Under the pieces are notes generated by a model that saw only the letters and a program-made list of their open reading frames with translations, had not been told where the DNA came from and ran no database searches. The translations under genes were made by a program, and so were the position numbers. A DNA stretch of 26,757 nucleotides. It comes from a virus. Below, one piece after another: positions 14,403 through 14,882 of this stretch (position 1 is its first letter; each line of letters begins with the position of its first letter). The stretch lies in IMG/VR virus record IMGVR_UViG_3300045741_000327, one strand, 5' to 3'.

Positions 14403-14882
14403 ATGCTTCTCTACACCTGCCCCGACCGATACGACGGACGAGAGCTTTCTCCAACGGAGAAGAAGTTTCCAAAAGTCTTCCTCGCCGGCGGCATCTCCAA
14501 TTGCCCTGACTGGCAAAAGGACTTGATCCGACTCCTCACCGTTGCTGACATCGCTGTTTTCAATCCACGACGTCCTGAAAGATTCGACCCCAACGATCAC
14601 GAGACCCACAAGAAGCAGGTGCAGTGGGAGTTTCACCACCTCCAACTAGCAGACGTCACTTCCTTCTGGTTCCCCAAGGAAACACTCTGCCCGATCACGC
14701 TATTTGAGCTTGGCGCTGCCTGTGAGCGTGAGCATGAAGGTCTACAGAAAATCTTCGTAGGTGCTCACCCAGATTACGCGAAGCTGGAGACGGTGAAGTA
14801 TCAGCTTGAGTTTTACGGGGCATTGCACGAGCCAGTAGTTCACTCTCTTGAAGAACTGGCAGAGCAAATCAAGAGGCTCTAG
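14403..14882 (+). CDS. DNPH1/Rcl-like protein of the nucleoside 2-deoxyribosyltransferase family (2'-deoxynucleoside 5'-phosphate N-hydrolase-like)
   Basis: KVFLAGGISNC matches the N-terminal V-Y-F-C-G-S-I-R-G-G nucleotide-binding motif. ...HHLQLADVTSFWFP...ITLFELGAACE... matches the DLNWLQQADVVVAEV...GYELGRAVALGKP core including the catalytic Glu in E-L-G. TAAATG overlap. Confidence 0.7.
   Translation: MLLYTCPDRYDGRELSPTEKKFPKVFLAGGISNCPDWQKDLIRLLTVADIAVFNPRRPERFDPNDHETHKKQVQWEFHHLQLADVTSFWFPKETLCPITLFELGAACEREHEGLQKIFVGAHPDYAKLETVKYQLEFYGALHEPVVHSLEELAEQIKRL

Follow-up and report, generated by a model that had tools for sequence, protein, structure and literature searches.

A phage-borne PF15891 gene encodes a putative N-glycosidase of the nucleoside 2-deoxyribosyltransferase superfamily with a possible role in NAD+ salvage

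The window analyzed here is a phage-like contig of 26,757 nucleotides (IMG/VR virus record IMGVR_UViG_3300045741_000327). At positions 14403..14882 (+) it carries a complete open reading frame (ORF) of 159 amino acids, running from an ATG start to a TAG stop at 14880-14882, whose product belongs to the PF15891 branch of the nucleoside 2-deoxyribosyltransferase (NDT) superfamily and would be a soluble enzyme of about 18 kDa. We propose, with a probability of roughly 50%, that this enzyme is a ribo-N-glycosidase or transferase (base-exchange enzyme) linked to the metabolism of nicotinamide adenine dinucleotide (NAD+). Homologs of the gene lie beside NAD+ salvage genes in many independent lineages, most often adjoining genes for enzymes that use up the free pyridine base, and on this ground we propose cleavage or exchange of a pyridine nucleotide or riboside. 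The gene more likely recycles NAD+ building blocks than replaces DNA bases, the role suggested for it in a first-pass annotation of the window.

Family membership and fold were established directly. The protein matches the Pfam family PF15891 (Nuc_deoxyri_tr2) over profile positions 2-94 of 105 (E value 7.3e-20; 71.7 bits against a cut-off of 30). An AlphaFold2 model computed with 38 homologs was confident (pLDDT 93.8, pTM 0.90), and its structural matches were, in order, the Protein Data Bank (PDB) entry 4MCJ, YtoQ, NDTs, Rcl/DNPH1, and MilB. The best of these, 4MCJ, is the solved structure of PF15891, and the model matches its fold. The first-pass annotation had placed the ORF in an N-glycosidase-type superfamily, which these results bear out, and within it in a DNPH1/Rcl-like family. 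The placement in the NDT superfamily holds, but that in DNPH1/Rcl itself does not: PF05014, the family of DNPH1/Rcl and the classical NDTs, gave no match at E ≤ 1, and an HMMER profile search of PDB sequences reached only 4MCJ and no DNPH1 or NDT chain. A profile search, proposed earlier as a check, does find a family, yet it is PF15891. 4MCJ (BDI_0649 of Parabacteroides distasonis) is the founding and only structure of PF15891; it is about 25% identical to the window protein, does not have the FWFPxETLC signature that marks the subfamily of that protein, and is itself uncharacterized, so that no function can be transferred from it. The PHROG match of the 159-residue protein (phrog_30579) has no function assigned there, and scans with NCBIfam and PADLOC returned no match.

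The residues expected of an NDT-type active site are conserved across 154 aligned relatives (151 at position F26). Both segments quoted in the first-pass annotation are present, F26-LAGGI and A83-DV..F88WF..E102-LGAA with the catalytic Glu. The first lies in strand β1 and the Gly-rich loop that follows it, F26-L-A-G-G-I-S-N-C-P-D-W-Q38 (14478..14516, +), in which F26, G29, G30, I31, C34, W37, and Q38 are invariant or nearly so. After strand β2 comes an N54-P-R-R57 motif (14562..14573, +; P55 in 154/154 relatives, R56 in 152/154, R57 in 147/154), a candidate phosphate-binding site. The model places Q72-V-Q-W75-E76 (14616..14630, +) in a helix spanning residues 66 to 82, and Q72, W75, and E76 are present in all 154 relatives. 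Strand β4 and the start of the nucleophile-Glu helix are formed by F88-W-F-P-K-E-T-L-C-P-I-T-L-F-E102-L-G104 (14664..14714, +), with E102 and F90 conserved in 154/154 relatives and P97 in 153/154. The residues typical of PF15891 as a whole are likewise retained (F26, G29, G30, I31, W37, Q38, P55, R57, Q72, W75, E76, F90, P97, E102, G120, Y125, and Q134).

A profile-sequence alignment with human DNPH1 (hhalign), of low probability but consistent register, pairs F26 with Tyr24 (KVFLAGGIS against ALYFCGSIR) and E102 with the nucleophile Glu104 (FELG against YELG). The human residues are numbered here as in the PDB entries of the Y24F and D80A mutants. By analogy, Glu102 would be the nucleophile of NDT-type N-glycosidases, and E76 likely corresponds to the Asp that serves as general acid/base in NDT and DNPH1, although the hhalign register to DNPH1 D80 is ambiguous. 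The Tyr-Asp-Glu triad of DNPH1 and NDT is therefore only partly represented: the Glu is present (E102), Tyr24 is replaced by Phe26, and the counterpart of Asp80 is probably Glu76.

The Phe at position 26 bears on the sugar of the substrate. It occurs in 149 of the 151 relatives, with Tyr in only 2. MilB carries the motif F17-L-(G/A)-(G/A)-P-F-R, with Phe17 at the position of the NDT/DNPH1 Tyr, and the single change F17Y shifts its specificity from CMP to dCMP (PMC4081090, citing Sikowitz et al. 2013). Since MilB with its Phe is ribo-specific, the near-invariant Phe here predicts a ribo-compound as substrate, not a 2′-deoxynucleoside monophosphate (dNMP). A deoxy-specific substrate of the kind used by DNPH1/Rcl, a 2′-deoxynucleoside 5′-phosphate N-hydrolase to which the window protein has no sequence-level family match, would by the same comparison be unlikely.

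Likeness to other named members of the superfamily is similarly partial. MilB and BlsM, N-glycosidases acting on CMP or hydroxymethyl-CMP, share the F-L-(G/A)-(G/A) motif with Phe for Tyr (F26-L-A-G in the window protein). However, no sequence similarity to them is detectable with HMMER, and MilB R23, which belongs to an Arg/Lys position six residues after the Phe that recognizes hydroxymethyl-cytosine, corresponds to Ser32. MilB has a MilA/ThyA-like neighbor, whereas no thymidylate-synthase-like gene was found in the window or among the recurrent neighbors of homologs. DmtZ of PurZ0 (Z-genome) phages is an NDT-superfamily enzyme that hydrolyzes dAMP and transfers bases on the nucleotide (PMC12884076); no better precedent exists for the reshaping of a nucleotide pool by a phage through NDT-type chemistry. 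DmtZ has a Tyr6-Asn77-Glu103 triad and lies beside DutZ and PurZ0, whereas the window protein has Phe26 and the window contains no dUTPase or PurA-like ORF. The DmtZ of Gordonia phage Ghobes was only a remote structural match (BFVD, TM-score 0.60, 13% identity, E = 5e-3). By these comparisons the chemistry would resemble that of DNPH1, MilB, NDT, and DmtZ, and yet the protein falls outside each of them on profile match, the triad Tyr, specificity residues, or partner genes.

The genomic association with NAD+ metabolism was observed directly in 160 loci carrying homologs, 80 of them viral (IMG/VR) and 80 from GTDB species genomes. No prior labels were used: 4119 proteins from called ORFs were clustered by all-against-all BLASTP without annotation, and identities were assigned to the clusters afterwards. 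After PF15891 itself, the commonest neighbor clusters were nearly all NAD genes: NrtR-type NUDIX (37 loci), isochorismatase/PncA-like (27), NAPRT (19), NAD kinase (NadK; 18), NadE (two clusters, 17 and 13), a 488-residue protein of the Nampt/Namat family (15), NADAR (14), NadR (13), NMNAT (two clusters, 12 and 9), a Prs-like protein (Prs/Adps-like; 12), PnuC (11), and ADP-ribosylglycohydrolase (ARH; 10). At least one NAD-type gene was present, within 10 kb, in 47 of the 103 loci of at least 12 kb (25/56 viral, 22/47 cellular). Where a locus carried such a gene, it lay within 3 kb of the homolog in 18/25 viral and 30/31 cellular cases. When the query family was grouped at 55% identity, the NAD link was kept in 18 of 35 groups, including 12 of the 24 purely viral groups, which indicates that the signal is not one lineage counted repeatedly.

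The immediate neighbor of the PF15891 gene is typically an enzyme that consumes a free pyridine base (PncA, NAPRT, or Nampt/Namat). Viral gene orders include NMNAT..PncA-PF15891-RNA ligase in T4-like phages, Prs-like-x-Nampt-like-PF15891, Prs-like-PF15891-x-Nampt-like, NAPRT-PF15891, and PnuC-NadR...PF15891. Sinorhizobium phage Phosso (469 kb) has the homolog as the last gene of a NadE-PncB-NUDIX-NMNAT-PncA-like cluster, with a Nampt-family gene adjacent. Contexts read with precomputed Pfam labels agree: of nine, seven contain NAD or ADP-ribose genes no more than 10 kb away. Two DPANN-type metagenome-assembled genomes and a 299-kb contig carry the order ...PnuC-NadR-NadK-PF15891... together with NAPRT, NadE, NMNAT, and an NrtR regulator; a T4-like phage contig has NAPRT...PncA-PF15891, and two phage contigs with a PF15891 homolog carry NADAR. 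P0004 ranks third in closeness to the window protein and is the nearest homolog whose surroundings include NAD genes; NMNAT-NUDIX and NAMPT lie 4-5 kb downstream of it.

As a base rate for this linkage we took the genome-level frequency of the Nampt family among phage records, 2048 of 50,697 of which hold any such gene. All of the Caulobacter and Brevundimonas phages with a homolog that were checked carry a Nampt-family gene, 6-13 kb from the homolog (12.3 kb in the Bertelyvirus group; 6-7 kb in Kikimora, Gurke, and CcrColossus), and in phiCbK-like phages an NMNAT-NUDIX-like gene adjoins Nampt.

RNA-repair genes also recur near the homolog (loci L007, L010, L178, and L006 and loci of the L009 lineage). 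They encode a PF09414 RNA ligase, RtcB, RlaP, and the 2′-phosphotransferase Tpt1/KptA, which uses NAD+; in the T4-like lineage the RNA ligase gene stands directly downstream of the PF15891 gene.

Depleting NAD+ is one of the major defenses against phages, and since 2024 three pathways by which phages reconstitute it have been described: NARP1 (Adps and Namat), NARP2 (Nampt and Nmnat), and NARP3 (PnuC and NadR) (bioRxiv 10.1101/2024.02.11.579819; PMC13464706). PF15891 homologs stand within or next to gene sets resembling all three (NARP1, NARP2/Preiss-Handler, and NARP3), and the role proposed for PF15891 follows the same theme, the supply of precursors for NAD+ resynthesis. The NARP descriptions in the literature examined include no NDT-like component, and the window itself holds no NARP gene.

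We infer the chemistry, the ribo-specificity, the substrate, and the use of the enzyme for NAD+ in this phage as follows. The enzyme would be an NDT-type retaining N-glycosidase or transglycosylase in which Glu102, with Glu76 assisting, would attack the anomeric carbon and form a covalent (phospho)ribosyl intermediate, Phe26 leaving room for the 2′-OH. The base would depart, and the ribosyl-enzyme intermediate would be resolved by water or by a second base. Nicotinamide or nicotinate would be the most probable leaving group, drawn from a pyridine ribonucleotide or riboside such as nicotinamide mononucleotide (NMN), nicotinate mononucleotide (NaMN), or nicotinamide riboside (NR); that it is NMN or NaMN specifically we offer tentatively, at well short of even odds. 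The freed base could then be used by PncA, NAPRT, or Nampt, with the ribose-5-phosphate going to Prs and phosphoribosyl pyrophosphate (PRPP), and these products would feed phage-driven NAD+ resynthesis during infection.

A more far-reaching proposal, which we consider a long shot, is that PF15891 provides a missing step of NAD+ reconstitution. It would do so as the long-sought NMN/NaMN nucleosidase, returning pyridine mononucleotides to the free base, or, more boldly, by a PRPP-independent (phospho)ribosyl base exchange that loads nicotinamide or nicotinate onto ribose-5-phosphate from the abundant nucleoside monophosphates (NMPs), much as DmtZ loads the Z base. The bolder version, if true, would constitute a fourth NAD+ route for phages and for host-dependent DPANN and candidate phyla radiation (CPR) cells, bypassing PRPP and ADP-ribose (ADPR).

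Several observations weigh against an NAD-linked enzyme. About half of the homologous loci have no NAD gene nearby, and the loci are phylogenetically related, so that the counts are not independent events. No NAD gene was found with Pfam and PHROG among the approximately 50 + strand ORFs of the window, which reaches from 14.4 kb before the gene to 11.9 kb after it, nor in L007, a related contig; the NAD inference for this copy therefore rests on homology. The subclade of the window protein differs from the family at two near-invariant positions (R127K and D130T), and its specificity could consequently differ. The hhalign alignment contains a two-residue gap, and either T94 or C96 may match NDT Asp92/DNPH1 Ser98, so that the substrate may be a nucleotide or a nucleoside. 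Hydrolysis of NMN looks wasteful where NMNAT is present. Literature searches found no published activity for PF15891/Nuc_deoxyri_tr2 and no report of its link to NAD. As to the silence of the window, the contig ends 11.9 kb downstream of the gene, and a NARP2-type pair standing as far away as in CcrBL9 (12.3 kb downstream) would fall just past that end, although this is speculation.

The alternative that survives best, though we judge it improbable, is a general ribonucleotide 5′-monophosphate nucleosidase resembling PpnN or AMP nucleosidase, which would convert NMPs from host RNA to bases and ribose-5-phosphate for Prs and PRPP, and so for nucleotide and NAD synthesis, with no preference for pyridines. 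The ribo-type Phe26 and the conserved Arg56 and Arg57 would suit such an enzyme, as would the recurrence of Prs/Adps-like neighbors (12 loci) and the position of the gene among unrelated small genes in the window and in many viral loci. Yet the immediate neighbors are mostly users of pyridine bases (PncA, NAPRT, and Nampt), and cellular members sit in NrtR-associated PnuC-NadR-NadK operons, a pattern that points to NAD rather than to the supply of ribose-5-phosphate.

We regard as unlikely a counter-defense glycosidase that destroys NAD-derived immune signals or ADP-ribose adducts (isomers of cyclic ADP-ribose, ADPR conjugates) by breaking the glycosidic bond at an anomeric carbon and returns the products to NAD+ synthesis. 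It would account for the NADAR and ARH neighbors and for the fusion of a PF15891 domain into a polyvalent protein (see below), and the RyDEP glycosidase provides a precedent for an analogous role. However, DPANN archaea, CPR bacteria, and cyanobacteria also have family members, set within NAD operons that look like housekeeping ones, and neither a PADLOC hit nor a link to defense islands was found. A component of a defense system was considered separately and rejected, with no PADLOC hit and no defense neighbors.

The role suggested in the first-pass annotation, in which a dNMP N-hydrolase like DNPH1 or DmtZ destroys a canonical dNMP to make room for a modified base and so evades restriction, is in our assessment very unlikely. 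The precedent invoked for it exists: DmtZ of Z-genome phages acts on dAMP in just this way (PMC12884076), belongs to the same superfamily, and has the nucleophile Glu that is also kept here. A divergent adenylosuccinate-synthetase (PurA)-like gene (E = 2e-22 to PurA structures) moreover lies within 10 kb of a homolog in 2 of about 170 contexts, locus L117 (1149..2366, -) and the contig of P0037. Against such a hydrolase stand the missing PF05014 match, the remoteness of DmtZ, and the Phe that replaces Tyr in nearly all relatives. Partner genes, which the earlier annotation had advised looking for, are missing as well: Pfam and PHROG searches of the window ORFs revealed no dNMP kinase, thymidylate-synthase-like hydroxymethylase, dUTPase/DutZ, PurA/PurZ-like, or deazapurine gene, and the recurrent neighbor clusters include no hydroxymethylase, dNMP kinase, dUTPase/DutZ, PurZ, or deazapurine gene. 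The recurrent neighbors of homologs are NAD+ salvage genes and not genes for DNA modification, and base replacement is unsupported. The broader suggestion of a function in the nucleotide pool stays plausible.

A catalytically silent binder, or a moron-like accessory gene whose role in this phage has nothing to do with nucleotides, would fit the uninformative window context and the R127K and D130T changes but is scarcely credible, given that the active-site-type residues are all kept (F26, W37, Q38, P55, R57, Q72, W75, E76, F90, and E102) and that 45-67% identity across domains of life indicates purifying selection on an enzyme.

Any interest lies in the prediction for the family, of which the single gene in the window is an ordinary member. 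PF15891, with approximately 3,700 clusters at 50% identity, accompanies all three types of NARP pathway as well as archaeal and bacterial NAD operons and has no assigned activity. As a possible new step in the recycling of NAD+ or in counter-defense, it could be tested cheaply and directly. The labels "nucleoside 2-deoxyribosyltransferase" and "DNPH1-like" on such phage genes are probably misleading as to substrate, and the presence of PF15891 genes in a phage is no indication of modified DNA.

The family is small but widespread. An exhaustive profile search returned 3739 representatives of 50% identity clusters at E ≤ 1e-3, from jumbo and T4-like phages, giant viruses, DPANN archaea, CPR bacteria, Armatimonadota, Planctomycetes, and heterocystous cyanobacteria. 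The giant-virus member is a Klosneuvirus fusion to Nudix. The window protein is 45-67% identical to relatives across the domains of life, and it is closer to members inside NAD operons (45-48%) than to the copies of Caulobacter phages (34-35%). A metagenome scan for its close relatives yielded three short contigs only. In cyanobacteria, a conserved 170-residue protein is encoded directly upstream of the PF15891 gene in 12 genomes of the Calothrix/Rivularia type (L126, L135, and 10 other loci; for example, L135 9381..9890) and has no match in Pfam, NCBIfam, or PDB.

Longer members have additional domains. Some are fused to an RGS domain (P0243 and P0244), and others are tandem duplications of PF15891 of about 300 residues with two matched stretches (P0121-P0125); the fusion partners (RGS, helix-turn-helix, and DUF1653) are uninformative with regard to NAD. 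In the Tunturiibacter phage Tunturi_5 (locus L003), gp225 (5950..9738) is a polyvalent protein of 1262 residues whose gene neighbors that of the portal protein. Its N-terminal PF15891 domain is joined to an ADP-ribosyltransferase domain (ART-PolyVal), an NAD+ consumer, and the remainder is unassigned.

Within the window, the PF15891-like gene is part of a long array of + strand genes. Its ATG at 14403 directly abuts the TAA of a small upstream ORF (14193..14402, +), which lies within the frame 13980..14402 and has a probable internal ATG start (MKSKEEV...) judged from the translation; no family match was found for it in Pfam or PHROG. Downstream, a Cys-rich ORF of 84 residues (14882..15136, +; CCGG...CEEHW...CRECTCEFCHD) begins at a GTG that overlaps the stop of the PF15891-like gene, and owing to this overlap the two appear to be translationally coupled. 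The 84-residue ORF had no match in Pfam, PHROG, or PADLOC. An 87-residue ORF occupies the same position in L007, and one of similar size follows the homolog in L008. A scan for promoters and terminators around the gene gave nothing above the shuffled background.

The remainder of the window offers some clues to the phage itself. Thirteen tRNA genes (Leu x2, Ala, Ile, Cys, Arg x2, Lys, Thr, Asp, Val, Gln, and Glu) are interspersed with ORFs over 125..7028 (+). These tRNAs are the only near-identical DNA matches to deposited phages, and the window has otherwise no close DNA relative. A 130-residue homolog of ribosomal protein bL12 (L7/L12) is encoded inside the tRNA cluster (2473..2865, +; Ribosomal_L12, E = 6e-22; Ribosomal_L12_N, E = 1e-5). 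The best clue to the lineage of the phage is a 674-residue protein with no assigned function (3494..5518, +; phrog_1735, E = 2e-281), which occurs in 546 phage records and shares 59% identity with a conserved protein of phiCbK-like Caulobacter phages.

Farther downstream, a major-vault-protein-like ORF of 905 residues (16105..18822, +; MVP_shoulder, E = 2e-23; Vault_3, E = 1e-10; weak Band_7) has a GC content of 0.62-0.64, compared with about 0.50-0.57 in its flanks. Among the 50,697 phage records its relatives are confined to three huge uncultured phages of 462-735 kb (LR756500/501/503), at about 40% identity, and LR756501 carries both the vault-like relative and a PF15891 homolog. L007, a 17.7-kb metagenomic contig, is syntenic with the window, and its PF15891 copy is 57% identical to the window protein; an ORF of 869 residues stands there at the relative position of the vault-like ORF.

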